64,000 nt of DNA from contig CAWCYI010000004.1 of NCBI GenBank assembly GCA_963799845.1, positions 1,792,001 through 1,856,000 on the forward strand, read 5' to 3'. The position numbers and the translations under genes were made by a program. Every line of letters starts with the position of its first letter. Position 1 is the stretch's first letter. Below the pieces are notes generated by a model. It worked only from the letters and a program-made list of their open reading frames with translations. It was not told the DNA's origin and made no database searches. Positions 22,835 through 39,464 of this stretch are shown in pieces. The DNA comes from an uncultured Nitrososphaerota archaeon. GTDB taxonomy: Archaea; Thermoproteota; Nitrososphaeria; Nitrososphaerales; CADDZS01.

Positions 22835-23347
22835 ATGGGAATTATTAGCTCCATCATGTTCGGAAACGACAAAAAGAGAAGGAAGCACAATTTCAAGAAG
22901 AAAAAGCAGTATTACAAAAAACAGTACTCCGGCGGGCAAAGGCATGCCCAATCTTCCTACGGACAACGATACCCACAAACCCAAACTAACTTTGCCAATC
23001 CTACACCTCGATTCCCGACACTCAAGGGTGAACTCGTCAGGAGTTTATCTGAGAAATACATTGCAGACTTTCTTTTCATGCATCATGTCGCATACGAGTA
23101 CGAGAGACCTCTTTCGCTGGAAGCTAAGACAGTTCATCCGGATTTCTACCTGCCTACTTACGGCATCTACGTTGAATTTTGGGGATTGCTTGACCGAAAT
23201 CATCCTGACTACTGGGAGAGTTTCAAATGGAAGGTCGACCAGTACGAAAAACACAGGGTGAAGTTTATTCCATTGTTGAATGAGGATCTTCCGAAGCTTG
23301 ACACAGTTTTCGGGGTTAAGTTGCGCCAAGCAATTCAAGCGAGGTAG
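22835..23347 (+). CDS. stand-alone PD-(D/E)XK nuclease-like protein
   Basis: GELVRSLSEK.IADFL...YEYE...PDFYLP...YVEFWG motif; basic/Gln-rich N-terminus. Confidence 0.7.
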   Translation: MGIISSIMFGNDKKRRKHNFKKKKQYYKKQYSGGQRHAQSSYGQRYPQTQTNFANPTPRFPTLKGELVRSLSEKYIADFLFMHHVAYEYERPLSLEAKTVHPDFYLPTYGIYVEFWGLLDRNHPDYWESFKWKVDQYEKHRVKFIPLLNEDLPKLDTVFGVKLRQAIQAR

Positions 23348-23355
23348 ATTCTACC

Positions 23356-23646
23356 ATGAAATACATGACGGATGCTCATCTTGCCAACGTTTCTCAATTT
23401 CTGAAAAGTAACCGAGTTAATTGTGAAACTGTTCATCAGTACATGAAAGGAAATGAGGATAGCCAAGTCCAAATTTATGATCCAGAAATTGTTCAATTTC
23501 TCATGAAGAAAAGATCAGAAGGAGTGGACATTACTTTGATTTGTAATGATAAAGATCTGGCGGGGCATTGTAGAGTACAGAATCTGCCGGTTATCTTTCT
23601 ACCGTATGCGGTACTTACTCTCATCAAAGAGTTGGAAAGTAAATAA
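23356..23646 (+). CDS. Mut7-C/DUF5615 PIN-like protein
   Basis: KYMTDAHL, D.EI, LICNDKDL motifs. Confidence 0.65.
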   Translation: MKYMTDAHLANVSQFLKSNRVNCETVHQYMKGNEDSQVQIYDPEIVQFLMKKRSEGVDITLICNDKDLAGHCRVQNLPVIFLPYAVLTLIKELESK

Positions 23647-23817
23647 TTGTCCTTCGATCAAAAGAATTAGTATTCTACTCAAGAGTTCTTGGAACGAGTG
23701 CTACTGTTTTTCCAAATTCGGAATGTAGATCGCTGACTCGATTGTAACGGTCTGATTTTTTTCAAGGAGATTATCCCTCTTGACTGAGTTCATGCATCAT
23801 TTCGAAAGGTGAGGGAT

Positions 23818-24294
23818 CTATACTTTTTTTCTCAATTGAACCTCAAATATCGAATCGAGTTGATTCTTATGCAAATCAATCGGATAATCTCGCAATTGCT
23901 CGCGGGTGAGTATTGTGCAATCATATTTTCGAGCTGTAGTTAACAAAAGGTCCATGTATGAGGGATCACTGTCAGCCTTTCTCAACATGCCATCGATTGT
24001 CTCAATATCCTGCATGATCATGTAGTTGCGAACTCTCGCGGATGCAATAACATCATTCAGCATTCTTGAATTAGACTGAACAGCTCTCCTCTTTTCCGCT
24101 GCGGCGATTTCTACCTTCAAATCGTGAATTGCTTCTCGAATCTTCGAAATCGTCGAAAATGGATACCAACTGATATCGTTGCATAGTCGCTCCAAATTGG
24201 ATCGATGGTACTGGAATCTATCCGCGCTCAGCAAAGAGCTAGATTCGCTAACCAATTTTTCATAACCCTCCAGTAGCGCGCGCGCGTTTCGCAA
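23818..24294 (-). CDS. hypothetical helical protein
   Basis: 158 aa ORF; frame stays open upstream through the AGCT repeat; start uncertain. Confidence 0.5.
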   Translation of the reverse strand: MRNARALLEGYEKLVSESSSLLSADRFQYHRSNLERLCNDISWYPFSTISKIREAIHDLKVEIAAAEKRRAVQSNSRMLNDVIASARVRNYMIMQDIETIDGMLRKADSDPSYMDLLLTTARKYDCTILTREQLRDYPIDLHKNQLDSIFEVQLRKKV

Positions 24295-24317
24295 CCGTGC
24301 GAGTCTGTTCTCCGCAC

Positions 24318-24397
24318 AGCTTGAAACAAGCTCTGTTAGCTCAGAAGAGCTTGAAACGAGCTGAACGGAGCTCAGAGAGCTCGAATCTCATTGAACG
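24318..24397 (-). repeat. phased AGCT array, copy 1
   Basis: AGCT at 24318, 24329, 24338, 24348, 24359, 24369, 24378; 24329-24397 matches the reverse complement of 39246-39314 at 64/69 nt. Confidence 0.9.
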
Positions 24398-24514
24398 AAG
24401 CGCAACTTGGATTCAATTGAACGGATTCCTATCTCACTGAATTACGGGTGATTAGGAGAATCAAGTTCGTTTGAAAACCCACTTTCTCTTAGTAAATGTC
24501 AGATATTACGGTCC

Positions 24515-25033
24515 TTAATCAATCCCCAGTATGATATCCTTTATCGCAACATAGTCTTTGGTACCCAGCCGGTACCCCACTCGAACCAGATCATCGAGCA
24601 TCTCCAGCACCTTTGACGCTTTCACGTCTCCCTTCTTTGCCCAATAAATCGGAAGGTAAGAAGTGGAACGAACGGGGAGCCCCATGGATCGAGCGGTCTT
24701 TGCTGCTATTTCGTCATCCATGAGCAGCCAATCGATTTTTCTGCCAGCTTCCTGCATGGCAAGCGAGATGCACTCTTTTTCTCCCTCGCCGAGATTGTCG
24801 GAAAGGGGCGGATTTCTAATGACTTTTTTCGACTTTACTACTTTGATCCAGCCGTCGTCGATCGCTTTCTCTATCTCGGGAACATCCGGGCTGCCGAGGT
24901 GCTTGCCCTTCAAAATCTCGTCCAGGACTGCTTGAGGGATAATTATCTGCTCAAAGGTTTCCCTCATCGCCTTCCAGAACAGTGGCACTTTAGCCGGATG
25001 GATGAGGCTGGACGTGTCGGCGACAGCTTTCAA
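24515..25033 (-). CDS. DUF3368-type PIN-domain toxin
   Basis: VADTSSLI, IPQAV.DE, LGEGE.E.I.LA, LLMDD motifs. Confidence 0.85.
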   Translation of the reverse strand: MKAVADTSSLIHPAKVPLFWKAMRETFEQIIIPQAVLDEILKGKHLGSPDVPEIEKAIDDGWIKVVKSKKVIRNPPLSDNLGEGEKECISLAMQEAGRKIDWLLMDDEIAAKTARSMGLPVRSTSYLPIYWAKKGDVKASKVLEMLDDLVRVGYRLGTKDYVAIKDIILGID

Positions 25034-25047
25034 GAAAAATGTTCTCG

Positions 25048-25386
25048 CTATCTTTTGCCGAAATCCGATTCCAGGGATAGTCTAATGCCCCTGATATCGA
25101 TCCTTATTGGGATATCCTCATTTTCCAAGATTTTGTATAATTCTGCGATGGAGATCCCCGCCAGCTCGGAGGCCTTCCCGACCGACAGCTTGCCTCTCCT
25201 GTATTCATCGACAGCTTTCCTCCTGTTATATTCATCCAACCCGATGTCCAGAACCTTCCGAAGTACCGACGAGCGGTCTATCTTTTCCTCCTTTGATATT
25301 CTTTCCAGCTTATCAATCTGGCTTTTGCTCACTCTTCCCGTGAGGTGCCTATTATCGGAATGCATTATTGTGCCACAAAGGGTCAA
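25048..25386 (-). CDS. UPF0175-family antitoxin
   Basis: IDRSSVLRK, Y..GKLSVGKASELAGIS motifs; upstream of DUF3368 gene. Confidence 0.85.
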   Translation of the reverse strand: MTLCGTIMHSDNRHLTGRVSKSQIDKLERISKEEKIDRSSVLRKVLDIGLDEYNRRKAVDEYRRGKLSVGKASELAGISIAELYKILENEDIPIRIDIRGIRLSLESDFGKR

Positions 25387-25512
25387 AGTGTGTTATAAAC
25401 TATTATGTCTGAAATCCGTTGTATAACTAGGGAGTTCTCGTAGCCGCGTATTCCGTAAAGGTATACTCGGTTAGCTTTATCTTAATCGAATATCATTTTT
25501 AGGTTGAAACTC

Positions 25513-25741
25513 TTGGCAGTCAGTGAACAAGTCTTCAACATTCTCGTCGAGAAAGACGAGGATGGTTTCTACGTAGCCTCCGTCGTAGAGCTTCCCGGCT
25601 GCCACACGCAGACCAAAACTCTCGACCAGCTGAAGCGAGAGGATCAGGGAAGCAGTTGAAGGATATTTGGAAACTTCTAAACCCGAACGAGGACCAGAAT
25701 TTGTCGGCCTTCAGCAACTCAGACTGCAAATATCCAAGTGA
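25513..25741 (+). CDS. hicB: HicB-family antitoxin (+1 frameshift near 25633)
   Basis: EKDEDGFYVASVVELPGCHTQ...ERIREAVEGYL read from the sequence; absent from the ORF track. Confidence 0.8.
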
Positions 25742-25980
25742 AACTGACTTTGCCGATAAAGGCGACTAAAGTTCGGAGAGTCGTTAAGGCACCCAACAAA
25801 CTGGGATTCAGATTGGAGCGAACTCATGGGAGTTATCTAATTTTCAAGCATCCTGATGGAAGGATAACCGTCGTGCCGCGACATAGCAATGAAGAGATTG
25901 GTCGTGGTCTATTGAGAAAAATTGCTATTGATCTGCGATTGTCGGCGGATGATTTTGCCAAAATTCTCGAAGAAAGCTAG
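25738..25980 (+). CDS. hicA: HicA-family toxin
   Basis: LGF...RTHGSY.IFKHPDGR.TVVPRH..EEIGRGLL; the usual GSH histidine reads as Y. Confidence 0.8.
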   Translation: MKLTLPIKATKVRRVVKAPNKLGFRLERTHGSYLIFKHPDGRITVVPRHSNEEIGRGLLRKIAIDLRLSADDFAKILEES

Positions 25981-26007
25981 CCAAAAACATCAGCTAGGTA
26001 TCTAGTA

Positions 26008-26289
26008 TCATTTAGAACCTGTGTGTCTAGAAAGATTTTCAATTAAAGCAGACTCTGATAGCTTTACATTTTTCTTAATCCTGGGAATATCTTCGCAATA
26101 TCTCTCGATCGCTCTTCGGATGTCGTCGAAATCTGATTTCTTCTTATTTGGTTCGAAGGATCTCTTCAAGGCTTTAGCATCTCCTGATTCCTCGAAGACG
26201 ACACTATCTCCTGCTTTTATTCCTCTTCTTTCGGCGAGCTTCTCTGGCGGCATAACTTGACGCTTTCTCGTAACCTGATGCCTTTTCAA
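26008..26289 (-). CDS. AbrB-family antitoxin-like protein, orphan/degenerate
   Basis: QVTRKRQV.PP...GIKAGDSVVF motif. Confidence 0.6.
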   Translation of the reverse strand: MKRHQVTRKRQVMPPEKLAERRGIKAGDSVVFEESGDAKALKRSFEPNKKKSDFDDIRRAIERYCEDIPRIKKNVKLSESALIENLSRHTGSK

Positions 26290-26401
26290 AATAGACTACG
26301 TTTCAATGTAGGACAATCTTTCTATTTTGATAATTCTTTTGATACAACGGCAACTCGATTAAATACACGATTAGAAAATACCCCTGATTTGAAGTAATTA
26401 C

Positions 26402-27256
26402 ATGGTACTGAAAGGATTTGCGATCAGCTGCTGGATCTGGTCGTCAGATTTCAGTTCGAACGATTTTGAGGCATTCAGAAATGCCAGTGAATTTGGTTTT
26501 ACAGGCATAGAAATTCCGACTCTTGATGGCGTCCTAGATAGCGTCCAGATCAAGAATGTTCTCAATTCGACGTCTCCTCGCCTAACGCCGATCATTATTG
26601 GAGGAGGCTTACCCCAGACTGATATGGCTTCAGACAGTGTTTCGATTGCTGAAAACGGATCAGACTATGTTAAGAGATGTATCAAGGCATGCGCAGACAT
26701 TGGCGGATCTCAGGTATGCGGCCCTCTGTACACCGCAGTCGGAAGTCTCCGATATTTATCAGAGGCCGAAAGGAACAATGTCCTGCAACGAGTAATCCGG
26801 TCTTTCAAAGATATTGGCAGGTACGCCCAGGATTTTGGCGTTTCCATCGCGCTGGAGCCACTCTGCCGCTACGATACTCACCTGATCAACACCTCAGCGC
26901 AGGCAAGGGATCTTGTCGATAAAATTGACCGGGAAAATATTGGAATATTGCTGGATACATTTCACCTGAACATCGAGGAAAAATCATTCAAGGATGCTAT
27001 CTCAACCGCTGGAGAAAAGCTCATCCACTTCCACGCATGCGAAAATGACAGGGGTACTCCCGGAACGGGGCACATCAACTGGAACGAGGTGTCAGATACT
27101 CTTCGCCTAACTGGATATGATGGCTGGATCTCGATAGAGTCGTTTACTCCATTTGATCCGAATTTTTCATCTGCAATGCGAGTCTGGAGAAAACTCGAAA
27201 GTACGCAGGACGAGATTGCTGCGAAAGGACTTGCCTTTCTGAAGACCAAATTCTAG
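26402..27256 (+). CDS. sugar phosphate isomerase/epimerase (D-tagatose/psicose 3-epimerase-like)
   Basis: ALEPL.RY, LDTFH.NIEE, HFHACENDRG.PGTGH, SIESF. Confidence 0.9.
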   Translation: MVLKGFAISCWIWSSDFSSNDFEAFRNASEFGFTGIEIPTLDGVLDSVQIKNVLNSTSPRLTPIIIGGGLPQTDMASDSVSIAENGSDYVKRCIKACADIGGSQVCGPLYTAVGSLRYLSEAERNNVLQRVIRSFKDIGRYAQDFGVSIALEPLCRYDTHLINTSAQARDLVDKIDRENIGILLDTFHLNIEEKSFKDAISTAGEKLIHFHACENDRGTPGTGHINWNEVSDTLRLTGYDGWISIESFTPFDPNFSSAMRVWRKLESTQDEIAAKGLAFLKTKF

Positions 27257-28810
27257 TCAGATTTCATGTCCTCCATTGCAATCATTGCCGTGTTATGCCC
27301 AGGTAATCCGGATACTCCACCGCCCGGATGGTTTGCCGGACTGCACATGTACAAACCCTTGATTGGAGTCCTGTACTCCGACCAGTTCGGGAAAGGCTTC
27401 AATGCGAGAGATTGATCTAAAGTAGCCTTGCCCACTCCTGGATCGCCGTATACAAGGCTGGGATTCAATCCCTCAATATCCTGCGGTGACAGTACAACTT
27501 TTTTCAGGATGATCTTCTTGACATTCGGAGCATAGTTGGACAATCGCTCAATGCACGCATCGGCAAAGCGCTCCTTCTGATCAACAGTCCAGGGCCTTCC
27601 ATTCACGAACACTGGAGCCCTGACAAAATTCCACATTATGTGTTTTCCAAGGGGAGCTCTCGTAGAATCATAGCAGGTCGTGTTATCGATCGTCATGAAA
27701 GGCTCTTTCGGTGGCTGACCAATTACGCAATCATTGTACGCCCGCGATATCTGGTTGAGCGAGTCGCCAATCTGCACCAGACCCGCTTTCTGGACCTCCT
27801 TCGGTCTGTAGTCGAGCCAATCATCCAGAGCTGCATGGATCATGACTTCGCTCACTTTCGAGTAGCGGAAACTCCTCACCTTCTTCTTGAAAGACTCATC
27901 AAGAGCAGAATCGGGGACAAGCTTGAGGAACAACGATTTCGGTTCCACACTAGCAACCACTCCCTTCTTTGCTTCGATCGTTGTCCCCTTTGCCGTCTTC
28001 ACGCCGTAAGCAGCGCCATGCCTGACGAGGATTTCAGTTACCTCCTGCCCCGTGATAATACTACCATTATGCGATTCCACGCACTTCCGCAGCGCTTCCA
28101 CAAGCGTGGTCATTCCGCCTAATGGAACGCCAGCTCCCCTGGTACTGCAGCAGTCCAAAGAAGACCATGACAAGAATCGCGCTCCCTGCGTCCTCCGGAG
28201 ACAGTGGAATGTGATTACTTCCCCACAGCGCAAGAAACGCCCTCATCTCCTCGGACTCGAAATTCTCCTCAAGCCAGTCCCTCGCCGACATGTAGGAAAA
28301 TTGTAGAAAGTCAAGCCCAGTGTCAGATCCCTCCAGCGCGCTCATCATTGATGAAAATAGAACCGGGGCCGAAGCAAGACTCCCGAGCAAGATGTCCTTT
28401 GATTCTATGAAAAATTCATAGAATTCTTTGAATTTGTCGGCGTCTTTTTTGGAGAATCTGGAGATCGATTTCAGAGTCAGGTTAAGATCCCGGTAGATCG
28501 AAATTGCTTCGCCGTTACGAAATGGCGTCGAAGCAACCGGATCGGGATCAACATCCCTGTAGCCATACTTCTTGAGTTCCAGTTCATCCTGAATTGAACT
28601 TGCCCTCCAGATGTTTATCGATGTAGCGAACATATCGTGCTTGAACCCTGGTAATGTTATCTCTTTTGTTACCGCTCCTCCACCAAGATAATTCTGACGC
28701 TCGATAGTTAGTGTGGAATATCCTGCCTTACCCAGGTAGGCGGCAGCGGAAAGGCCATTCGTTCCACCTCCCACGATAATGAAATCTGGCGAATCCAAAA
28801 GGTTGCTCAT
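27253..28810 (-). CDS. phytoene dehydrogenase-like FAD oxidoreductase (+1 frameshift near 28141)
   Basis: IVGGGTNGL, GGAVT.E.TLPGF.HD, YRTPIKGLY, HPGGGVSGLPG. Confidence 0.88.
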
Positions 28811-28965
28811 TCGGAGCTTACCAGCGTTCCGTATTTTAGGATTCAAACAGATTTTCGATACGAGGCTATTACAGATCCGAAAAAAAGAGGAAGGGTCCTC
28901 GCTCCGCTCGACAGTCTTCCCAAGAATTCAATTGCACGTATTCCCATGCCATTCTTAGACAACTG

Positions 28966-29395
28966 CTATCCAATCCGCGCCACCAGTCCGTCGAAACCTC
29001 GATCAAGAGAAATGAGATAATCCAGATTGTACTCCTTGATCTGCGTCAATATCGTATGGTCTGTGAAGCTCAACTCTTTGAGTTTCCCGCTCCGGAATAC
29101 TCTCCAGCTTTCGGCGAATGTCTTCTCGTCAACCCGGATGAGCCTTGCGAGTGTCAGTATTCTTTCCTCTTTTGATCCCAGGATGATCTTCCCGACCTTT
29201 ACCGCGTTCTCCACCCTCCCAGTACGAATCAGAGTCACGGTGAGCGCCTCATCAAACACGTAATCTGAGGTATAGGGCTGACCAAACTCACCTTTGCGAA
29301 TTCTTTCGAAGAGAAGAACAGCTGACTTTGTGATCTCGATTTTTCTTGTTCGCCAATGAAACGAACATGTTCGTGTCGATGAAAGAGCTGGTCAT
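28966..29395 (-). CDS. PIN-domain toxin (+1 frameshift near 29328)
   Basis: FIDTNMF, TSDYVFDE, LSFTD, SLDRGFD. Confidence 0.8.
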
Positions 29396-29405
29396 AAGAT
29401 TCAAT

Positions 29406-29705
29406 CTACCTTTTTATGATCCTTGTCTTTCTCCCGTAAAGTGTCTCGTCGATGTCTTGCCATCTCGACTTGAAACCCCAATCTTCGCTCAAAGCTAGAA
29501 TCCTCTGGAAATCCTCGCTGGACATCGGAACCGTTTCTTTGAGAACTCGATCTACAAAATCATCGCTTCTCTCGATTGCATCGCTGATGAGCGCTGAAAG
29601 CAACTCTTGCTGTGTGACCTTTTTCCCCCTGAGAGTGATGAGTGCTTGGAGCTTTTCCAGGTTTTGCTTATCAGCTTCGTCGACCTTTACTGTTGTGGTA
29701 GGCAT
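29406..29705 (-). CDS. RHH-type antitoxin
   Basis: TTVKVDE..K..LEKLQA...KVTQQELL, DIDETLYG; upstream of PIN gene. Confidence 0.75.
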   Translation of the reverse strand: MPTTTVKVDEADKQNLEKLQALITLRGKKVTQQELLSALISDAIERSDDFVDRVLKETVPMSSEDFQRILALSEDWGFKSRWQDIDETLYGRKTRIIKR

Positions 29706-29808
29706 TCAATTCATGGTATACAAGTATTCCAGATATACTTTGCTACCGACAGCAAAGCACATGAGCAAGATGATTGAGAGTTTCTTTGATGTAATCATTG
29801 AATTCCTT

Positions 29809-30660
29809 TCAAACATTCAGTACAATGACAACGCCCACAAACAAGACGACAATCCCGATTATCTGGATCTTTGTCAACCTGTCCTTGTAAAATGCAGTCG
29901 CGAGAATAGTGGTAACAACGCCGAGCAGGCTGGAAAGGGTCGTCACCAGAGCTGGACTGTTCCCGGAGTAAATGTACCCGAGGGTAAGAGCGGTAAACCC
30001 TGCCGAGTCAAGAACGGCCATAACGATTAACCACTTCCACGCACCGTCTTTCGGGAGCACGAGCTTTTTCATCGTTAAAAGGAGGAACGGGAACGAAAAC
30101 AAAACTGCGCCGACCCTCACGAACCAGACACTCAGCACCGATCCAAAATAGCCCGCGCCGTAATTCAGGCCGAGATAAGCTGCCCCGAAGAAAATGCTCG
30201 CGAGTAAAGCCGATACCACGCCGGTTGAATTTCGTTTCTTTGGGACCTGCCCCGATGAACCATCTGGACCGGGAGTGACACCGGACAAGATAACACCAGA
30301 AATCACTATCGCGATGGCGATTCCCTTTTCGAGTCCTATCCCCTGACCCAGCAGGACAAATCCAAAAAGGATCGTGAATATCGGAAAAGAGCCAGCGATC
30401 GGAGCCGTCAGCGACATGTTTCCAATCGAAAAAGCCCGGTAGAGGAGCATCAGTCCAAGGACATTCAGCGCGCCAACGAAGATGTCGAGCAGCATATAGT
30501 TCGCTCCCTTCGAAATGAATCCCATGCTCGGCAGCCCAGTGATCAGGATGAACGCGGAGAAACCTGCGAGGCTGAACAGCTGCATGTAAGCCGTAGAGTA
30601 GCCGTATCCGATCTTTCTCGACGCAAACCGTGAAAGGAAATCCGTCGTACCCCAGAACAA
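29809..30660 (-). CDS. EamA/DMT-family transporter (true start probably slightly upstream)
   Basis: about 10 hydrophobic helices in two EamA-like halves. Confidence 0.85.
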   Translation of the reverse strand: MFWGTTDFLSRFASRKIGYGYSTAYMQLFSLAGFSAFILITGLPSMGFISKGANYMLLDIFVGALNVLGLMLLYRAFSIGNMSLTAPIAGSFPIFTILFGFVLLGQGIGLEKGIAIAIVISGVILSGVTPGPDGSSGQVPKKRNSTGVVSALLASIFFGAAYLGLNYGAGYFGSVLSVWFVRVGAVLFSFPFLLLTMKKLVLPKDGAWKWLIVMAVLDSAGFTALTLGYIYSGNSPALVTTLSSLLGVVTTILATAFYKDRLTKIQIIGIVVLFVGVVIVLNV

Positions 30661-30807
30661 CGCAGCGAGCAGCCCAAAGATGGCCGGCGGGATCAGATCG
30701 TACTCTTGCCTCCAGAAGTAGCATGAGGCTAAATTTTCCGGGGAGAATCAACTTTGCGTTCAATCACGGGAAATTGATTTTAGAGGGCTTTCGAAAGAGA
30801 ACGTGGC

Positions 30808-31725
30808 TTGCCGAAGATCCAGTTTGGGTTCCAGTTCCCCAACGTGATGGGCTACAGTTCCTTTGATCGCTTGAGAAAAATTGCAGAAACGGTGGAGGAC
30901 CTTGGTTTCAACTCCATCTGGACTTCTGATCACGTCCTTCCAGTAGCGGCTTTCCAAAAAACAGCAGAACCTGGGATATACGAATCAGTAACGACTCTCG
31001 CTTATCTCGCGGCCGTTACCAAAGAGGTCACGATTGGATCGTCCGTCCTGCTCCCGCTGAGACACCCATTGTTACTTGCGACGATGTTCAACACGATAGA
31101 CCACGCCTCTTCAGGGAGACTACGAATTGGTCACGGCGTCGGCTGGTACAGATCCGAGTTTGAGAACATGGGAATCCCATTTGCAAAACGAGGTCTCGTG
31201 GCCACAGAGCAGCTGATGATCATGAAATTGCTCTGGACAAAACCATCCGTGAGCTACAAGGGAGAGTTCTACACTCTCAGGGGTGCAAAGGTTGTGCCGA
31301 AACCGGTGCAGAAACCTCATCCTCCAATCTTGATCGGCGGATCTTCGAATCAGGCACTAGAGCGCGCGCTCGAGCTTGGAAACGGTTGGATGCCGTTTGC
31401 TGCTTCCGTGGAGGATGTCAGAAAAGGAATGGAGGAAATTAAGCGAATCGCTTCCTCGAAGAAGAGGAATCTGAAAGATTTCCTTCTCTACGTGGATTTA
31501 CCCACTACGTTGAAGCCGAAAGGCGAGTCGGAAATAACTTTCAAGAAACTAAAAATTGATGACGACAGGGAAGAAAGTCTTACAGGAGATTTTTCCATTA
31601 TCACAAACAGAATCGAACGGTACATATCCCTTGGAGTGCAACAAATAATTCTTGAATTCGAGGAACACGAGAAAGAAATTGAAAACCTCAAGCTTTTCAA
31701 AAGTGAAATTGCGTCAAGGTTCTAG
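30808..31725 (+). CDS. LLM-class (probably F420-dependent) oxidoreductase
   Basis: GFNSIWTSDH, GRLRIG.GVGW..EF, PKPVQKPHPPILIGG. Confidence 0.9.
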   Translation: MPKIQFGFQFPNVMGYSSFDRLRKIAETVEDLGFNSIWTSDHVLPVAAFQKTAEPGIYESVTTLAYLAAVTKEVTIGSSVLLPLRHPLLLATMFNTIDHASSGRLRIGHGVGWYRSEFENMGIPFAKRGLVATEQLMIMKLLWTKPSVSYKGEFYTLRGAKVVPKPVQKPHPPILIGGSSNQALERALELGNGWMPFAASVEDVRKGMEEIKRIASSKKRNLKDFLLYVDLPTTLKPKGESEITFKKLKIDDDREESLTGDFSIITNRIERYISLGVQQIILEFEEHEKEIENLKLFKSEIASRF

Positions 31726-31855
31726 CAAGATCTCCCTAGGATTAGATCTTTTCTTCCACGTTCCTGCAGGAGGCTTTAACCGGAACGAAAAGAATATCCA
31801 ATTCATAGCAGTCTCGATTACAATTTAAGGAAAGTACCAAGACCTGTTTCCGAAT

Positions 31856-33017
31856 TTGAAAAATGAACAAGTGAAGGCAGCCGGTACTCACGGCTCCAAA
31901 AAAGATCGAGACCAGAACCTTTCCGACGCCGGAAATCACGAAAGAGACCGGGCTGGTCAGGATGCTCGGTTCCGGCATCTGCGGCACGGACAAGCACGTC
32001 TACACGATGGGCGAAGTGAAGCTCGGCCTACCGGGCGACATCGTAAAGCTCCCGATAATAATGGGCCACGAAAACCTCGGCGTAATCGAGGCGATCGGAT
32101 CCGAAGCCGCGAAGAAGATGCTCATGGAAGGCCCTCCGCTCGAAGTCGGCGAACGGGTCTATATCGCAGCCGACATCCGATGTGGTCAGTGCTACAACTG
32201 CAAGAACATCTACGGCTTCCCCTGGTGCTTGAATCACACGAGCTATGGTGACGTGATCAGCTGCACAAAGCCGCCACATCTATTCGGCGGCTACTCGGAA
32301 AAAATGTTCATCCTCGAGCACAGCGACCTCTTCAGAGTCCCCAAGAACCTACCTAACGAAATTGCGCTTTTGGCGGAACAGATGGCGGTTGCATACGGGG
32401 CATTCGGACGAGGATTCCAAAGTCCAATAACAAAAGAAGGGTACTCACCCGGCGATACTGTAGTGGTGCAGGGCGTCGGCTCGCTTGGGTTGTGCAACGC
32501 TCTGATGGCAAGGATGCTCGGCGCCGGAAAAATAATCGCAATCGACAAGTCTGAATACAGGTTGCGGCTAGCGGGGCAGTTGTGCTCAACCGAAGGAATA
32601 AGCCTGAACGAATTCCCAAAGCAGTCAGACAGGATCTCGAGGGTCAATGCGCTGACCGATGGGATTGGAGCAGACACGGTCGTCGAATGCACGGGAGATC
32701 CCGGAGTTATCTCCGAGGGTCTTGACATGCTACGCATAGGCGGGACGTACCTAGTAGAAGGAGCGTTTGTCGAAGATGCCGACACGCGAATCTCTCCGTC
32801 ACGTCAGGTTCTTGCGAAGAACGCGAGGATCATCGGAGTTTCAGGAATGCCGCACCAGGCATACGGGCGGGTGCTAAAGATGATGGACAGCTATCGCAAC
32901 ATCATCCCGTTTGAAAAGATGATAACTCACAGGTTCGACGTCGAAGACGCGAATGAGGCGATCGAAGTCTCAATGTCGCCGGACTCTGGCAAGGTCGCTC
33001 TCGGTTCAATGCGTTGA
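31856..33017 (+). CDS. zinc-dependent alcohol/polyol dehydrogenase (+1 frameshift near 31883)
   Basis: GICGTD, GHE, C..C..C structural Zn site, GVGSLG. Confidence 0.9.
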
Positions 33018-33083
33018 ATCACTGATCTTTCTAGAATCACTTGAGATTTCCTTAATAGCGAAAATCCGTTTCGGACTAGTCTA

Positions 33084-33564
33084 TTGTCAACTCAAAGCAA
33101 AATCTGGTATTTCGCATACGGCTCGAACTTGAACGTTGACCAGATGAAATCCCGCATAGGCGCGTGGCAGCTATCGAGAAGAGCCATCGTCAGAATCTAC
33201 AAACTCGTGTTCAACGTCTTCTCTAAACAACGAGGCGGCTACTCTGCCAACCTGCAGGAGACGAGCAACTTCGAGGACACAGTTTCTGGCGTGGTCTACC
33301 ACATTACGCAGGATCAACTAAACAAGTTGCAAAAATCCGAGGGAGTAGCACCGGTCGAGATCAGAGTCGAGCTGAGAAGACGGGAACGAAATTTCGCACG
33401 CGAAAGTCTTCATCTGGAAGACGACGGAAAAAGAGCACGAGCCCCATAAAGACTACAGACGCATCATCGAACAGGGCTTTTTGCAGCACGGATACCCGGA
33501 TTCCTCGGCGAAGAAAATTTTCGAGCGGTTCAGTAATCCCAAAGCTGAAATCCTGAGCGAGTAA
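33084..33564 (+). CDS. gamma-glutamylcyclotransferase family (+1 frameshift near 33376)
   Basis: YFAYGSNL motif; repaired C-terminus EPHKDYRRIIEQG..QHG. Confidence 0.8.
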
Positions 33565-35097
33565 TTATTCTGGTGGTATCTCGCGAAAAGCGAAAGAAAT
33601 ATCGATTCCTCTTGCCTTCTGCCTGGATTTAGAAATTACATAGATCACTACGCCCGCGAGAAAAGTCGCTGCAATGTATCCGTAGGCAAGAGTGTTCCCT
33701 CCCCAGACCGATCCGTACGCGAAGAACTCGTAAGTGAGGTAGGAAAAAACCAGGATCTGTAGAAGACCTGCAATAAAGAGGACAATTTTTTCACGGCCAC
33801 TGTGCAACTGCCTGAAAGCATAGACCACGGCAGCAAGCCCGACGAATGCAAAATAAATCATTGCAGCCACTACCGCCCCGTATAGAGAAGATATCGTCCC
33901 ATAAAGAAACGAAGCAAGCCCGATCAAGATCACCGTAATGACAAGATCAAGTAAATGCGCAACAACGGGCGACCCGTACTTCGGGCTGACGTAAGCCAGC
34001 CGCTCCGGGAGGAAGCGGTCAAACGCCTGAGCGAGCAGGTATCTCGAGATCGTAATTATTCCAAAGGCAAGGACTGCGACAGTGAAAAGTATCCAGCCCA
34101 GTCCGATGATCAACTTTACCAGATAGCTCCCGGATACCCCCATGGCAAGCGTCCAGAAATTGAACGAGTAGTTGTACACCAGATTGGAATTAGAAAGCGC
34201 TGAATTCGTGAATGCGAATCCTCCCACATAATACATCACCGCAAAGGGAACCGTGAGGAGGATGAAGGCGACGAGAAGCGAAACGGGCGTGCTCCACCTG
34301 ATGGTCTTGCCGCCCTTCAGTTCTGATCCGACCGAGGGTGCCGCATTGAACCACGGATAGCTGAACAGCGCGAAAAATGGCATGATCAAAAGGGTGTTTC
34401 CAAGATTGAAGCCCGTCGATCCCTGGTAGGAATTTGCAATCGAATTGTATGTGGTATTTGTTATGTTAAGTGAAGAAACATAGTTTACAACTCCCTCTCT
34501 CCCCGCGAAGAGAAGCGACGCAACGGATACGACGATAGAAATTATTCCGATAGCCCAGAATATCGAAATAATTCTGAAACCGGAGTTGGGTCTGAAAATG
34601 TTGAGAAGGACTAACAGCGCTACAATGAGCGAACCTATGAGAAACTGGTAGACGGGTGTGGCTCCAGAAGTTGCGAGCTGAACCATGCTTGAATAACCGA
34701 GATTTACACCCACCGAACCAATCGCGAACACGGCGGACAGTGCGATGAGTGCGAGGTACGGCATGGTCTCGAGTGTGATTCCCATAAAGGTCAGAGTGCT
34801 CCCGGCAAAACCTCCGAGGGACCTCGAAACCCAGACGTAATCCCCGCCCGTCCTTGAAATATGCCTCTGCATAATCGTGTAGACGATCATCTGCGGCACG
34901 GCGAACATTGCCGCAATTGCAGATCCGTAAACCAAGTTGACGCCGGTTACAGTTGGGAGGGCCAGCATGGTAAATCCAATCAGAGCGAGAGCCGCACCGA
35001 TCGACATGTAGCTGATGTTTATCGCGATCGAATCCAGAAAGGAAACACTCCTGACAAGACCGGTCGCCTGTCTGACGAAGACCTTGCTTTCTCCCAC
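33565..35097 (-). CDS. APC-family amino acid permease
   Basis: FVRQATGLVR, RTGGDYVW.SR, AFDRFLP; about 12 TM helices. Confidence 0.9.
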   Translation of the reverse strand: MGESKVFVRQATGLVRSVSFLDSIAINISYMSIGAALALIGFTMLALPTVTGVNLVYGSAIAAMFAVPQMIVYTIMQRHISRTGGDYVWVSRSLGGFAGSTLTFMGITLETMPYLALIALSAVFAIGSVGVNLGYSSMVQLATSGATPVYQFLIGSLIVALLVLLNIFRPNSGFRIISIFWAIGIISIVVSVASLLFAGREGVVNYVSSLNITNTTYNSIANSYQGSTGFNLGNTLLIMPFFALFSYPWFNAAPSVGSELKGGKTIRWSTPVSLLVAFILLTVPFAVMYYVGGFAFTNSALSNSNLVYNYSFNFWTLAMGVSGSYLVKLIIGLGWILFTVAVLAFGIITISRYLLAQAFDRFLPERLAYVSPKYGSPVVAHLLDLVITVILIGLASFLYGTISSLYGAVVAAMIYFAFVGLAAVVYAFRQLHSGREKIVLFIAGLLQILVFSYLTYEFFAYGSVWGGNTLAYGYIAATFLAGVVIYVISKSRQKARGIDISFAFREIPPE

Positions 35098-35105
35098 GTT
35101 GAAAA

Positions 35106-35123
35106 TCCGAACACATGTTCGGA
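35106..35123. promoter_or_regulatory. perfect 8-2-8 palindrome, putative operator
   Basis: TCCGAACA-CA-TGTTCGGA between the permease start and an AT-rich TATA-like box in the divergent promoter. Confidence 0.65.
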
Positions 35124-35188
35124 AATCTTACATATTTATGATTGCCCACATGTTGTTGGACTCTCGCAAACCTGATGGGATAATATCA

Positions 35189-36247
35189 ATGGGAAAAGTT
35201 GAGCGCGTTCTTCTGGATCTCATAGAGCGAACCGGAAACGAAGTTTACCAGTCCGACCTCGTGAGGCAGAGCGGTTTTTCGAAAAGCCGCGTTTCCGAAG
35301 TTCTCTCGGCACTTGAAGGAAAGGGACTTGTGTCCAGAGTCCCCCTGGGGAAAAATTTCAGGGTGATCGCTTCCGGCAAAACTAAAATCGGGAGATCAGA
35401 AATTCGTAAAGACAAAAGGAATAGCAAGATTCTGAGACTCGGAATTATACGTGCATCTGAATATCCATTCGTCCTGCCGTTTGAAAGACTGCTCCGAGAA
35501 AAGCTCGACATCAACCTCAGCCTGGTCACTTACAACAACGGAATCGATCTCTCGCGGGATCTGTCACTCCTTCGACTAGATCTTGGTATCGCGCCGGTGC
35601 TGACGCACTTTATGTTTTATTCGATCGGCTCTCCGATCAGGATGATTGCCCCGGCGGGCTCAGGCGGAGCGACAATTCTCGTGAACAATTCTACTAAGAG
35701 AAAAACTAAAGATCAATCTTACGAAGTGGCATCGACGAAACTGTCAACGATGGAGCTGATGCTTCGAGCTTCGATCAGCGACGGGGACTTACCTTCGTCC
35801 TCCAAGATTCAATACTGCAACAGTCCGAAACAGTTGATGAACGCGGCAGTATCCGGAAATGTTGACGCGGCGTGCATCTGGGAGCCCTACTCCACGATTC
35901 TCCTCAAGGACAAGCACCGAAGTTTCAAGAGACTTATCAGGCGTGACGATTCCGAGGAGTACATCTGCTGTGCGCTTGCCGCGGGAAATCACCTCGACAT
36001 CAACACGCTCCGTCGCATAGCCAAAATTTACGATGAATCCATGGATGAATACAGAAAGAGCCCCGAGAAGTTCTTTGCCCCGTACTCGGCGTTCATGGGA
36101 TTCGATGAAAAACTGATGAGGACAGTTGCGAAGGAATACACTTATCCCGCGGAGCTGGATTATCGCAAACTTTCAAAACAGTTTGAACATGCCGGGATCA
36201 AGATACCATTACCATCCAGCGTGAAAGAAGCCGTGCTGTCCGCATAG
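35189..36247 (+). CDS. wHTH transcription regulator fused to a NitT/TauT-type binding-protein domain
   Basis: N-terminal YQSDLVRQSGFSKSRVSEVLSALEGKGLV HTH; C-terminal GNVDAACIWEPY and CC motifs; no signal peptide or TM. Confidence 0.75.
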   Translation: MGKVERVLLDLIERTGNEVYQSDLVRQSGFSKSRVSEVLSALEGKGLVSRVPLGKNFRVIASGKTKIGRSEIRKDKRNSKILRLGIIRASEYPFVLPFERLLREKLDINLSLVTYNNGIDLSRDLSLLRLDLGIAPVLTHFMFYSIGSPIRMIAPAGSGGATILVNNSTKRKTKDQSYEVASTKLSTMELMLRASISDGDLPSSSKIQYCNSPKQLMNAAVSGNVDAACIWEPYSTILLKDKHRSFKRLIRRDDSEEYICCALAAGNHLDINTLRRIAKIYDESMDEYRKSPEKFFAPYSAFMGFDEKLMRTVAKEYTYPAELDYRKLSKQFEHAGIKIPLPSSVKEAVLSA

Positions 36248-36366
36248 TAAAGGAAAAAACACCTGCCTTTACTCAGTGGAAAAAGCCGCAAAGTTGCTCG
36301 ACAACTAAAACGAGCAACGCTTAATTCTAATCCGGACTCGCAACTCATTTTCAGGACGAAAAAGAA

Positions 36367-38118
36367 ATGTCATCCGAGTTTACCGGCGTCAAGTTCATCG
36401 CAGAGTACTTCAAAAAATCAGGCATTAAGCACGTCTTTGGCATTCCTGGTCACGGGAATGCTGCGATCGTTGACGAGCTCATCGATTACTCCTCTGACAT
36501 ACAGTTTGTCCCGATAAAACACGAGCAGTGGGGCGGCCACATGGCCGACGGGTACTTTAGAGCAAACAGGAAAGTGCCGGCAGTTGTAACGACTTCCGTC
36601 GGACCAGGAGCTACAAACCTCGCGACCGCGCTTGCAACAGCTTACGTTGATTCTTCGACCTTCATCGCCCTGACCGGGGAGATTCAGACCTATTTCTTCG
36701 GCATGGGCATCTTTCAGGAGATCGAGCGGCAGAATTCCATTGATTACATCAACGCGATGCGCCACCTCGCAAAGCGAACCTGGCTCGTCTCAAGCATCAA
36801 GCAACTCCCGAGAGTTTTGCAGAACGCGCACAGGGAAGCCCTGAGTGGCAGGCCCGGCCCGGTTTTGATCGACCTACCCATGGAGCTGCAGGTGGAGAAA
36901 ACTAGTGCGAAAGTCCCGGATCCCCCGGTGATTCTTGGACGGCTGTACCCCGACCCGGCAAGCGTCGAGAAAGCTGCGGAACTCTTGCTCTCGGCAGAGC
37001 GACCATTCATCCTCATCGGAGGGGGCGTGGTCATGTCCGACGCGCAGGGCGAGCTCGTGAGGGTCGCCGAATTTCTGGGAGCCCCGGTGGCCGCGACGTT
37101 CAGGGGCGACGCGAAGGGCGGTTTTCCCGAAGACAACGATCTCTACGTGTTCTCCCCGGGAAATGTGGGGAGTCTGGTTGCAAACAGACTTGCAACGGAA
37201 GCGGACGTGATACTCGCGGTCGGGACGACGTTCAGCGACGAGACCACAAGTTCGTACTCTCCGGGCGTGACCTTCAACATCCCTCCAACGAAATTGATTC
37301 ACATGGACATCGATCCGCGAGAGATCGGGAAAAACTACCCGACGGAAGTCGGCATCAATTCCGATGCAAAGGCGGGTCTCTCTTCCCTGTACGACGTTCT
37401 GTCGCAGATGGGAAAGAAAGCAGATTATCACAGGTCCGCCCACTACCAGCGGATAAAGCAGCTAAAGGATCAGTGGTTCCAGGAGATCGATGCCCTGAGG
37501 ACGCAAACTCCCATGGGAATCCCGAACGCGGTCAAGATCTTGCGCGCCGTGCTCCCGAAGAGCGCGATCGTTTCCGTGAGCGCGGGCCTGCCTCAGGAGA
37601 TTATGGCGCAGTTGTGGACGACTTCAGAGCCGAGGACGTTTTTGAGTTCGGGCGGATATTCGACGATGGGGTTTGCCTTCCCGGCGGCGATGGGCGCCAA
37701 GCTCGCCCGACCGGACAGAGTGGCCGTTGCGGTGGAAGGGGACGGCTCGTTCATGATGAACAATGTCGAGCTCCTTACCGCAGTCCAGTTGAAGCTCCCC
37801 GTCGTTGTCGTGATCCTGAACAATTTTGGCTGGATCTCGATCAGAGACCTGCAGATTAGAAATTTTCAGGGCAGAATTGTAGGGACGGATTTCAAGGATC
37901 GAACTGGAAAAGTCAGGACACCGGATTTTGAAATGATCTCGAAAGGGTACGGAGCAGAATATTTCCGCGCGGAGAACCCCGCGGAACTTTCAAAATCGGT
38001 TTCGAGCGCGATTCTATCGGAGGGACCGGCGGTCGTGGAGGCCATCATCGAGAACAAGTTCCCGTACAGCGGATCAAAGTCCTACGGATTCTGGGACCTG
38101 CCGTCGAGAGCCAACTAG
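36367..38118 (+). CDS. thiamine pyrophosphate-dependent enzyme (acetolactate synthase/IolD-like)
   Basis: FGIPGHGN, HEQ, SVGPGATN, GDGSF..N...NN TPP motif. Confidence 0.9.
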   Translation: MSSEFTGVKFIAEYFKKSGIKHVFGIPGHGNAAIVDELIDYSSDIQFVPIKHEQWGGHMADGYFRANRKVPAVVTTSVGPGATNLATALATAYVDSSTFIALTGEIQTYFFGMGIFQEIERQNSIDYINAMRHLAKRTWLVSSIKQLPRVLQNAHREALSGRPGPVLIDLPMELQVEKTSAKVPDPPVILGRLYPDPASVEKAAELLLSAERPFILIGGGVVMSDAQGELVRVAEFLGAPVAATFRGDAKGGFPEDNDLYVFSPGNVGSLVANRLATEADVILAVGTTFSDETTSSYSPGVTFNIPPTKLIHMDIDPREIGKNYPTEVGINSDAKAGLSSLYDVLSQMGKKADYHRSAHYQRIKQLKDQWFQEIDALRTQTPMGIPNAVKILRAVLPKSAIVSVSAGLPQEIMAQLWTTSEPRTFLSSGGYSTMGFAFPAAMGAKLARPDRVAVAVEGDGSFMMNNVELLTAVQLKLPVVVVILNNFGWISIRDLQIRNFQGRIVGTDFKDRTGKVRTPDFEMISKGYGAEYFRAENPAELSKSVSSAILSEGPAVVEAIIENKFPYSGSKSYGFWDLPSRAN

Positions 38119-38157
38119 AGATTTTACAATGTACGACGTAGGGATGGGCTGTTTCAG

Positions 38158-39255
38158 ATGACGAGTAAAGTTGGCACGGCCGTAGTGGGGTTGGGCACGA
38201 TCGGGTCAGTGCACGCCGAGTGGTACGCTCAGATTCCGGAATCTACTCTCGTAGCGGTCTGCGATGCACGTGAAGACGTGTCAAGAAAGATCGCAGCAAA
38301 ACACGGCGTGAAAGGATACACGGATTTTCACGAGCTCATCGAAGACAAGAATGTCGAGGCTCTTACGGTCGCGGTTCCAAACTATCTCCACCATGACGTC
38401 GCGGTCGCTGCTCTAAAAGCTGGAAAGCACGTCGCGGTTGAAAAACCTCTCTGCCTGACACTCGCCGAAGCCGATGAGATGATCAGGGAGGCAAAGAAAG
38501 CAGGAGCCGTGGACATGTATACCGAAAACCTCTGCTTTGCTCCGTCGTACCGCGCGGCAAAGGACATCGTCGACAAGGGAGGGCTCGGAAACCTGTACCT
38601 CTGCAAGGCGTTCGAGTCAGACGACATCGTCCTCGGATCGGAGGCGGAGAAGAACGTTCTCAAGACGAGCTGGTACCTTGACCCGAAGCAGTCTGGAGGA
38701 GGGAAGTTGATCAGCACTGGGGTGCACGCCGTTGAATACGTGAGGTTCATGTTCAATCATCCGCGGGCGTTGAGGGTGCATGCCGAAATCATCGACAGCA
38801 TCGGGGTGCAGAAACCGGAGCGGATGGAGGACATGGCGCTCGTCACGATCAGGTTTGAGGGAAACCGCGTCGGAGAAGTTCACACCGGCGGCTACATGAC
38901 GGGCGGGACGGATGACCGCGCCGAGATTTACGGCGACCAGGGGACCATATTCTTGGACCTCTACAGGCGCAATGAGATAAAGGTGCACAGCCACGTCGGT
39001 TACGGCAGCGTGGGGCAATCGATGTTTCAGCCCTCGGAGGGAGCTGACATTGGTTGGTCGTTTCCGATTCCAGACGAAAAGTACGACCTCGGGTACTACC
39101 ACGAGCAGCGGCACTTTTTGCAGTGCGTGATCGCCGGGAAGAGGCCGAAGGTCAACTTCGACGACGGCCGCGCCACTTTAGAGATAGTGCTCGCGGCTTA
39201 CGCGTCTCATGACCGCGGAGAATCGATAAATCTGCCGCTGCAATCCGTTCAATGA
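38158..39255 (+). CDS. Gfo/Idh/MocA oxidoreductase
   Basis: VGLGTIG, GKHVAVEKP, SGGG.L...GVH motifs. Confidence 0.9.
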   Translation: MTSKVGTAVVGLGTIGSVHAEWYAQIPESTLVAVCDAREDVSRKIAAKHGVKGYTDFHELIEDKNVEALTVAVPNYLHHDVAVAALKAGKHVAVEKPLCLTLAEADEMIREAKKAGAVDMYTENLCFAPSYRAAKDIVDKGGLGNLYLCKAFESDDIVLGSEAEKNVLKTSWYLDPKQSGGGKLISTGVHAVEYVRFMFNHPRALRVHAEIIDSIGVQKPERMEDMALVTIRFEGNRVGEVHTGGYMTGGTDDRAEIYGDQGTIFLDLYRRNEIKVHSHVGYGSVGQSMFQPSEGADIGWSFPIPDEKYDLGYYHEQRHFLQCVIAGKRPKVNFDDGRATLEIVLAAYASHDRGESINLPLQSVQ

Positions 39256-39326
39256 GAAACAAGCTCTCTAAGCTCCGTTCAGCTCGTTTCAAGCTCTTCT
39301 GAGCTTACAGAGCTCGAACGTCAGCT
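39246..39326 (+). repeat. phased AGCT array, copy 2
   Basis: AGCT at 39262, 39271, 39281, 39292, 39302, 39311, 39323; inverted copy of 24329-24397. Confidence 0.9.
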
Positions 39327-39464
39327 CTTCGCTCAAAAAGTGCTCGTGTGTAGAAACGCAGAAAAAAAATTCTATATAAGAATCAATGGAAACTAGTAAT
39401 TAAAGAAAGACTAGAAACACGTCTTTCTTGGCTTCAGGGTATGGAACAAGACCTGACGAATGCT

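Follow-up and report, generated by a model that had tools for sequence, protein, structure and literature searches.

A dispersed family of modular intergenic repeats built from AGCT-bounded cassettes in a Nitrososphaerales archaeon

Two AGCT-rich stretches in the genome of an uncultured Nitrososphaerota archaeon belong to a dispersed family of non-coding, modular intergenic repeats in which short AGCT-bounded cassettes occur in both orientations. On balance, we think that both stretches probably represent an old, lineage-restricted family of mosaic repeats resembling REP/BIME or BOX elements, or a MITE-like family without terminal inverted repeats (TIRs). The stretches were found in a window of 64,000 nucleotides (C4:1792001-1856000), which is the whole piece of DNA analyzed and comes from a 4.6-Mb genome in nine contigs (G000). 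A preliminary description of the window had recorded two copies. This count was far too low. With the 110-nt copy 1 as query there were 53 matches in G000, and blastn returned 69 HSPs corresponding to 50 loci. A profile of the roughly 163-nt core (nhmmer) gave 106 matches at E ≤ 1e-3, which merged into 83 loci, and 65 loci at E ≤ 1e-5. The accompanying suggestion of a new small repeat family has held up: the family is dispersed and multicopy, has no TIRs, and is not a CRISPR. Its loci are spread over both large contigs of G000, and because their density is roughly one per 70 kb, two copies within 15 kb are unremarkable. Runs of at least four AGCT sites at 8- to 13-bp spacing numbered 38 in G000, with seven sites in 13 runs and eight sites in one. 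Those cross-checked by position coincided with family loci; the one exception noticed (C6:1683693) lies within an ORF and has no family match. Genome-wide avoidance or enrichment of AGCT was considered and rejected, the observed/expected ratio in the whole of G000 being an ordinary 1.10, with roughly 20,800 AGCT sites besides those in the arrays.

The family has a narrow distribution. We found matches in 6 of 41 genomes of the order (G000 included) and none in the other 35. Full-length copies were confined to G000 and its congener G003, which had 24 matches in an assembly that is 61% complete; there were none in the 39 other genomes of the order searched, with the negative result for G001 resting on a genome flagged as unpublished. 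Matches in G002, G004, G005, and G026 were only 21 to 35 nt long, and the congeners G005 and G006 held short array-like fragments. A triple-site pattern (AGCT-N5-8-AGCT-N5-8-AGCT) was more frequent than in reversed controls in G000 (150 versus 46) and G003 (68 versus 16), and near or below the reversed controls in the remaining genomes of the same taxonomic family. We rejected a separate AGCT-phased family in G016, where the 39 triple-site matches (0 in the control) were all unrelated single sites. Among 185,579 species genomes, an exact 28-nt pattern occurred in one other MAG (seven stretches, in a record set titled "Nitrososphaerales archaeon"); it was also found in 15 stretches on soil-type metagenome contigs, with 0 matches in viral contigs. 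In bacteria, repeats dispersed between genes have been studied in depth. The literature that we searched, which leaves many subscription papers outside, contained no description of such repeats in Nitrososphaerales or Thaumarchaeota, and the AGCT family has apparently gone undescribed so far.

Most of what had been noticed at the two copies in the window proved accurate. Copy 1 contains seven AGCT sites (24318, 24329, 24338, 24348, 24359, 24369, and 24378) with spacings of 11, 9, 10, 11, 10, and 9, and the array of copy 2 (39262-39326) contains another seven, inverted relative to copy 1 and spaced 9 to 12 bp apart. As reported, a 69-mer of copy 1 differs from inverted copy 2 at five positions, none of them within AGCT; TTGAACG is present twice in copy 1; and positions 24417-24427 (ttgaacggatt) are the exact reverse complement of 39242-39252. 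The triple-site pattern occurs 10 times in the window, always within copy 1 or copy 2, compared to 0.04 expected from dinucleotide-preserving shuffles, none of which (0/100) reached 10. The flanks had also been called unrelated, and this holds only in part: in both copies, similarity continues beyond the 5′ edge of the array into another module, and in the alignment copy 2 has about 80 additional conserved bases, as far as about position 39405.

A typical copy is about 160 bp long and consists of five parts. In alignments that include the flanks, the first part is an AT-rich, TATA-like octamer (ttYWWaWW) followed at a fixed distance by the conserved AGTTCCCATTGATTC; the sequence of the octamer varies while its AT-richness is kept. 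The second part is an A/T tract (A8T4 or T8), and the third, the A module, comprises ctgcgtttc, a GC-rich segment that varies, a T4-5 run, and gaag; it occurs in three or more sequence types. Next come the AGCT array and, last, a tail that closes with TTGAACGG. Copy 2 has all five parts on the minus strand (39242-39405; nhmmer match C4:1831245-1831405, which is 39245-39405 in the window and 3-163 in the model). They are a 5′ module (39362-39405) with the TATA-like AT-rich box, AGTTTCCATTGATTC, and the A/T tract (tatagaatttttttt); an A module (39327-39361; ctgcgtttctacacacgagcactttttgagcgaag) with a GC-rich segment and then a T5 run; the array, with minus-strand cassettes gacgttcg, ctgta, cagaag, tgaaacg, gaacgg, and tagag; and the tail (39242-39261; tgtttctcaTTGAACGGATT). 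Copy 1 lies on the plus strand (24284-24427; nhmmer match C4:1816284-1816397, or 24284-24397 in the window and 48-162 in the model) and lacks the first two parts, the alignment showing no AT-rich/AGTTCCCATTGATTC module upstream. It has a diverged A module (24284-24317; gcgcgtttcgcaaccgtgcgagtctgttctccgcac), the array (24318-24381; cassettes tgaaaca, ctgtt, cagaag, tgaaacg, gaacgg, and cagag), and a doubled tail (24382-24427), in which cgaatctcaTTGAACGa is followed by a second TTGAACGGATT. About eleven copies extend into composites of roughly 560 bp, which add a CTCGACAATCGTCGAG hairpin module (at about 13 loci) and a second A-like module with a GGGGCCCC palindrome (at about 18 loci). We rejected a conserved hairpin in the A module itself, where the folds were weak (−1 to −7 kcal/mol) and inconsistent.

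Family loci lie mostly between genes, as do both copies in the window. Copy 1 is flanked by two minus-strand ORFs without Pfam matches, one of 158 amino acids (23818-24294) whose predicted start adjoins the copy and one of 172 amino acids (24515-25033) on the other side. A plus-strand gene for a GFO/IDH/MocA-family oxidoreductase (38158-39255; PF01408, PF22725, and PF02894) converges on copy 2, and its stop codon is contained in the copy's tail. A 632-amino-acid Ser/Thr/Asn-rich ORF without a Pfam match (39465-41363, minus strand) shares the strand of copy 2 and stops 60 nt short of the 5′ end of that copy. We scored overlap across G000 against a crude ORF call (longest ORFs of at least 80 amino acids, resolved greedily) that covers 71 to 84% of each contig and 82 to 83% of the two large ones. 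Overlap was at most 11 nt at 39 of the 47 loci with a score of at least 55 and 22 to 160 nt at the remaining eight, where at least two of the ORFs lie inside the long repeat itself. The element has no orientation bias relative to genes: against its two neighbors it was opposite to both in 15 cases, in the same direction as both in 14, between convergent genes in 10, between divergent genes in 7, and at a contig end in 1. The same protein family was never found next to more than 4 of 52 loci.

When each AGCT is taken together with its spacer, the 90 arrays compared (from G000, G003, and metagenome contigs) resolve into a small vocabulary of cassettes, usually in the order acgttca, ctgtW, cagaag, tgaaacg, gaacgg, Yagag; about 20 copies in G000 have the 5′ modules but a different cassette order. 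These cassettes differ in sequence and length, and TRF reported nothing at either copy at a minimum score of 30, in keeping with the earlier view that the array is not a tandem repeat. Distances between successive AGCT sites were mostly 9 (97 cases), 10 (113), 11 (126), or 12 bp (21), with a mean of 10.2, and a second group fell at 19 (39), 20 (22), and 21 bp (7). Beyond the proposed phasing of about 10 bp, the lattice also has steps of 19 to 20 bp. Among 42 distinct full-length copies, 2.3% of positions were non-consensus in the 28 AGCT columns and 9.8% in the 36 spacer columns (8.5% without the flipping cassette), a difference (Mann-Whitney P = 0.0035; P = 0.015 without that cassette) to be read with the caution that columns and copies are not independent and that the copies were picked with a model that includes the array. 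Each AGCT site was intact in 36 to 41 of the 42 copies. The expectation that AGCT is kept while spacers vary is thus weakly borne out as a contrast between column classes, but it fails for the spacers cagaag and gaacgg, and because these two are as invariant as AGCT, the constraint is not limited to AGCT. The central array (2.3 to 9.8% non-consensus) is also far better conserved than the 5′ modules (27%) and the tail (22%).

Several of the cassettes occur flipped in place, as exact reverse complements. Between the same AGCT sites, we found TGAAACG 40 times and CGTTTCA 22 times, with the further variants CGAAACG (4) and CGTTTCG (6) at the same position. Other cassettes also occurred in both orientations (CAGAAG 52 and CTTCTG 4; CTGTA 27 and TACAG 5). 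One G003 copy (G003:C124) carries an entire two-cassette block, ctgta-AGCT-cagaag, in inverted form; the sequences on its two sides, acgttcaAGCT and AGCTtgaaacg, form an inverted-repeat pair. The most frequently flipped cassette sits between 23-nt arms that are 74 to 78% complementary. In copy 1, arms at 24329-24351 and 24359-24381 (74%) make an imperfect foldback around tgaaacg; in copy 2 the arms lie at 39262-39284 and 39292-39314 (78%). The CGTTCAA of the first cassette is also complementary to the TTGAACG of the tail. Because AGCT is self-complementary, and often part of GAGCTC, every AGCT site can pair with every other. Folded as a single strand, copy 2 gives one long hairpin (z = −3.3, whether modeled as DNA or RNA), and copy 1 takes another shape. 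A consensus RNA structure contained only AGCT-AGCT pairs, and since different copies have different best folds, there is no single conserved hairpin. The spacers cagaag and gaacgg are nearly invariant though they add little to pairing.

The family appears to be old. Mean identity among copies within G000 was 0.688 (0.883 for the best pair), compared to 0.687 between G000 copies and those from other genomes and metagenome contigs. Copies within G000 are thus no closer to one another than to copies from elsewhere, which means that no burst occurred recently and that the family is older than the species split. At all five loci with usable synteny, the element is present in both genomes, with array identities of 0.92, 0.94, 0.86, 0.67, and 0.49; the 150-nt flanks of these pairs are 0.57 to 0.81 identical, compared with a baseline of 0.58 for unrelated DNA. 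The array is therefore well kept in three of the five pairs and truncated or rearranged in two, including copy 2 of the window. Downstream of the oxidoreductase gene, whose orthologues are 93% (G003) and 78% (G004) identical, the G003 element begins straight after a TAA stop, and in G004 there is a TGA stop, no element, and a different neighboring gene. In G000 the stop has been lost, and the frame continues three codons into the tail. At another locus (C6:715302), the two orthologous copies have A modules of different types between neighboring modules that are nearly identical; this one case suggests that segmental gene conversion may have occurred there.

The absence of TIRs, which had led the preliminary description to set the element apart from typical insertion sequences and MITEs, was confirmed: the best match by eye between the 5′ end (ttctttatat...AGTTCCCATTGATTC) and the 3′ end (...aaTTGAACGG) was 7 of 11 positions, there is no transposase alongside, and the inverted repeats that we found lie inside the array. 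Inspected by eye, neither 41 copies at their 5′ junctions nor two orthologous alignments showed shared flanking words that would mark a target-site duplication, the element ends being fuzzy by several bases. Nor was there a clean empty site, synteny being lost at the junction at the four candidate empty sites from alignments of G003 or metagenome flanks with G000 (L072, L059/L051, L032, and L038). Contigs from four soil-metagenome DNA runs of a single study had loose ends and raised depth at both copies of the window and no joints. With TIRs, evident target-site duplications, and a clean empty site all not found, mobility is putative at most. A link to RAYT or IS200 was also rejected. The two Y1 transposase genes (PF01797) of G000 lie inside a 2.8-kb IS200/IS605-type element, present in two copies that are 93 to 98% identical and in six solo end copies, with an ORF beside tnpA that is TnpB-like judging from gene order alone. 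The family model did not match this element in nhmmer, no family repeats border it, and we found no autonomous partner for the AGCT family.

Under the reading that we favor, an old family of mosaic intergenic repeats, the family would have spread before the split of the two carrier species. Later change would have come from point changes, segmental gene conversion between copies, and the inversion, duplication, or loss of AGCT-bounded cassettes. The array would be an imperfect foldback whose loops and inner blocks may invert by hairpin-loop flips or by template switching at palindromic (G)AGCT(C) junctions. The 9- to 11-bp lattice would then reflect the cassette length of the foldback, and designed helical phasing would not be required. 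Hosts may have put the element to use, for example, as a hairpin or as terminator-like punctuation. A purely selfish or neutral reading does not account for how much more strongly the central array is conserved than the other parts, or for the near invariance of the spacers cagaag and gaacgg. These features point to a sequence-specific constraint by protein or RNA, possibly through a protein on methylated DNA or through an RNA role.

Among known systems, the family is most like REP/BIME or BOX elements and does not qualify as a MITE, a REP/RAYT system, an iteron, a tandem repeat, or a known RNA. REP/BIME elements of enterobacteria are repetitive extragenic palindromes arranged in mosaics, with single palindromes of 20 to 40 nt, a conserved tetranucleotide, and a link to RAYT, a single-copy Y1 transposase with the repeats on both sides. 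Like them, the AGCT family is high-copy, intergenic, non-coding, and hairpin-forming, and it is a mosaic of short modules without TIRs or evident target-site duplications. Its palindromic units lie between genes in mosaics, as seen from the 65 loci, the 39 of 47 that are clear of ORFs, the swapped modules, and the long composites. Unlike REP/BIME, its palindromic part is a 65- to 90-nt lattice of AGCT-bounded cassettes, it has no associated RAYT-like gene, and it is carried by an archaeon. In Streptococcus pneumoniae, BOX elements consist of boxA, a variable number of boxB, and boxC, in units of about 45 bp. They share with the AGCT family a modular build with conserved end modules and a variable middle, dispersal between genes, and stable hairpins, whereas the units of the AGCT family are about 10 bp long, bounded by a 4-bp palindrome, and found in both orientations. 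MITEs and PATEs are non-autonomous derivatives of insertion sequences and include the IS200/IS605-derived palindrome-associated elements of haloarchaea. The AGCT family is likewise small, non-coding, multicopy, and structured, but it lacks TIRs, evident target-site duplications, a parent insertion sequence with matching ends, and demonstrated insertion polymorphism. A MITE with an internal minisatellite has been reported from Porphyromonas gingivalis (PMC4596501).

Arrays with short sites about once per helical turn are also found in iterons, centromeres, and SeqA-bound GATC clusters, and in the phylum of our host AGCT is itself a methylation target. We consider it unlikely, however, that the family is a methylation-readable protein platform, in which phased AGCT sites are N4-methylated by a host orphan methyltransferase and load a protein on one face of the helix. 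Candidates for the loaded protein would include chromatin proteins, for instance an archaeal histone, and SeqA-like readers of hemimethylated DNA. Several observations are consistent with this idea. AGCT columns vary less than spacers (0.023 versus 0.098, P = 0.0035), spacings of up to 30 bp cluster at 9 to 11 bp (336/451) and 19 to 21 bp (68/451), AA/TT-type dinucleotides peak 5 bp from AGCT centers (0.89 at −5 and 0.31 at +5), and independence of orientation fits a function in double-stranded DNA. The statement that AGCT is methylated in thaumarchaea also has a basis in print: AGCT carries m4C at 96% of sites (5974/6224) in a Nitrosoarchaeum bin whose orphan methyltransferase is 45.9% identical to M.Mma5219II (PMC6329791) and at 82 to 91% in two marine Thaumarchaeota bins (bioRxiv 10.1101/2021.05.08.442635), and an AGCT specificity is listed from REBASE for three thaumarchaeal enzymes (PMC11033074). 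G000 itself has 12 Pfam matches to PF01555, 0 to PF00145, and 2 to PF02086, together with one histone-fold gene. Its best match to a PF01555 protein of 258 to 265 amino acids common to three complete genomes of the order lies at C4:1427655-1428321 (42 to 43% identity). This counterpart of the small methyltransferase is a candidate AGCT enzyme.

Against such a platform, the candidate methyltransferase is split over two frames in the assembly, its DPPF part and the remainder lying in different frames; the frameshift may be an assembly error because eight single-base gaps in 18 kb separate the G000 assembly from short-read contigs. AGCT is ordinary in frequency genome-wide, strict phasing is broken by 19-bp steps, and the array is truncated or rearranged in two of five orthologous pairs. 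Moreover, the phasing counts as one evolutionary event and not 65 independent ones. A general chromatin or segregation role is unlikely because full-length copies are restricted to two species, with none in the other 39 genomes searched. Iterons and centromeres are single arrays beside rep or par genes, whereas the AGCT family has about 65 dispersed copies and no associated gene. We are more doubtful still of a stronger version, in which selection keeps the array as a double-stranded lattice of N4-methylatable AGCT at one-helical-turn spacing that loads a protein at some 65 sites. Its core could be AGCT-ctgtW-AGCT-cagaag-AGCT-[tgaaacg in either orientation]-AGCT-gaacgg-AGCT, and the loaded protein an archaeal histone or a reader of hemimethylated AGCT. 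If so, the element would be a mobile "chromatin landmark," indifferent to orientation and tolerant of cassette flips, and AGCT would be both the binding or methylation unit and the recombination junction for cassettes.

It is quite unlikely that the repeats encode a family of small structured non-coding RNAs, every gene being driven by a promoter of its own within the 5′ module. Such genes would account for the TATA-like octamer that stays AT-rich at a fixed distance from AGTTCCCATTGATTC, for an array region more stable than shuffles (z of −3.0 to −3.6 as RNA), and for how strongly the middle 50 nt or so are conserved. Yet copy 1 of the window has no promoter-like module, and the putative start is separated from the array by T4-T8 runs, at which archaeal RNA polymerase would be expected to terminate. 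Flipped cassettes would swap stretches of the RNA for their complement, and no fold is common to the copies; the pairing blocks, being the invariant AGCT sites, offer no covariation. In the window, a tRNA scan found none and Rfam 15 gave 0 matches at the gathering score; at an E-value threshold there were only chance-level matches (E of 0.026 to 0.65) with bit scores far below the gathering scores.

We likewise give little credence to host-recruited transcription punctuation, in which the hairpin-rich array and the A/T tracts form a bidirectional terminator or, possibly, a terminator-promoter cassette with the TATA-like box facing outward at the 5′ edge. The A8T4 or T8 tract does give one strand or both a T-run, the A module finishes with T4-T5, 17 of the 24 copies preceded by a co-oriented gene are within 140 nt of its stop, and copy 2 sits between convergent genes. 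But the balanced gene orientations described above, the scattered distances to downstream starts (43 to 685 nt), and the weakness of the A-module hairpins all argue against this role, which also leaves the conserved cassette sequences unexplained. Lastly, a 47-amino-acid ORF (24297-24440) spans copy 1, but a duplicated Ser/Leu/Glu-rich coding fragment is scarcely credible: 39 of 47 loci fall into gaps between ORFs, frames through the array stay open for 16 to 51 codons with no common frame or shared start in 25 copies, no conserved frame with synonymous-biased substitutions was seen across copies, and the array is not coding because copies differ by 1-nt indels (acgttca 25, gacgttca 11), as well as by flipped cassettes, and carry stops. 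The two outcomes that the preliminary description had named as fatal to its proposal, only two copies or a coding fragment, are thus both contradicted, by the many copies and by the indels and stops in the array.

As a genomic repeat, then, the family is of a fairly ordinary kind, with a putative function at most. It is nonetheless a compact natural example of cassettes that flip in place between 4-bp palindromes, and these flips are relevant to the ways in which prokaryotic DNA is remodeled by hairpins and template switching. Because the bounding site is the motif modified by thaumarchaeal orphan methyltransferases, the arrays are also ready-made probes for a possible reader of AGCT methylation. 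Finally, short-read assemblies of this lineage are interrupted by the repeats, with contigs ending at both copies in the window.

In the archaeal genome G000, the approximately 65 non-coding, mosaic intergenic repeats of the AGCT family include a long composite version of about 560 bp, which was found at C1:1870-2450 and at some 10 further loci. Part of the added length is a CTCGACAATCGTCGAG hairpin module, present at approximately 13 loci in the genome. The composite also carries a second module that resembles the A module (the GC-rich segment and T-run located 5' of the AGCT array) and contains a GAGGGGCCCCCT palindrome; this was found at about 18 loci. Genome-wide, GGGGCCCC occurs 28 times.

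Copy 2 of the repeat lies at the end of a GFO/IDH/MocA oxidoreductase gene. Orthologues in the related genomes G003 and G004 have a C-terminus that reads ...LPLK* (L043, ~2290-2330; L044, ~2570-2590). The G000 gene has lost this stop, and its product has the extended end ...LPLQSVQ* (window 39230-39261), with the new stop being a TGA within the tail of the repeat. Also beside copy 2, on the minus strand, is a 632-amino-acid open reading frame (39465-41363) that is rich in Ser, Thr, and Asn and has a hydrophobic N-terminal stretch. No Pfam family was found for this product, which is probably secreted or located at the cell surface. Copy 1 neighbors a UPF0175-family small protein (25048-25386, minus strand; PF03683, E = 2.9e-9) and an adjoining 172-amino-acid reading frame with no Pfam match (24515-25033, minus strand), which together are possibly a toxin-antitoxin-like pair.

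We compared positions 23000 to 41000 of the window with short-read contigs from four soil-metagenome runs (X1-X4) and identified eight single-base "left out" differences in 18 kb, including two within copy 2 (39322 and 39362). Such gaps suggest that the assembly contains homopolymer-type errors or that reads came from other copies of the repeat.

A small N4/N6 methyltransferase is common to three complete genomes of the order. In its G000 counterpart (C4:1427655-1428321, minus strand), the DPPF motif and the FxGxG part fall in two different reading frames; the gene is a pseudogene, or the assembly contains an indel here.

G000 also harbors two copies of a 2.8-kb IS200/IS605-type element (C4:749685-752504 and C6:~728085-729889; 93-98% mutual identity). 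The element encodes a Y1 transposase of 141 amino acids and a second, putative product that we take to be TnpB-like. One of its ends recurs elsewhere in the genome as six solo copies of 210-225 bp that look PATE-like. Kinship of this element with the AGCT family was rejected; the two are unrelated.

Last, the congener G006 contains three occurrences of a different short AGCT-punctuated repeat, AGCTTTGAAACAGCTTGTGTTTCAGCTATCTGTTCAGCT (C78:2570-2608, C134:18284-18322, and C153:143-181), which shares TGAAAC/GTTTCA-type cassettes with the AGCT family.
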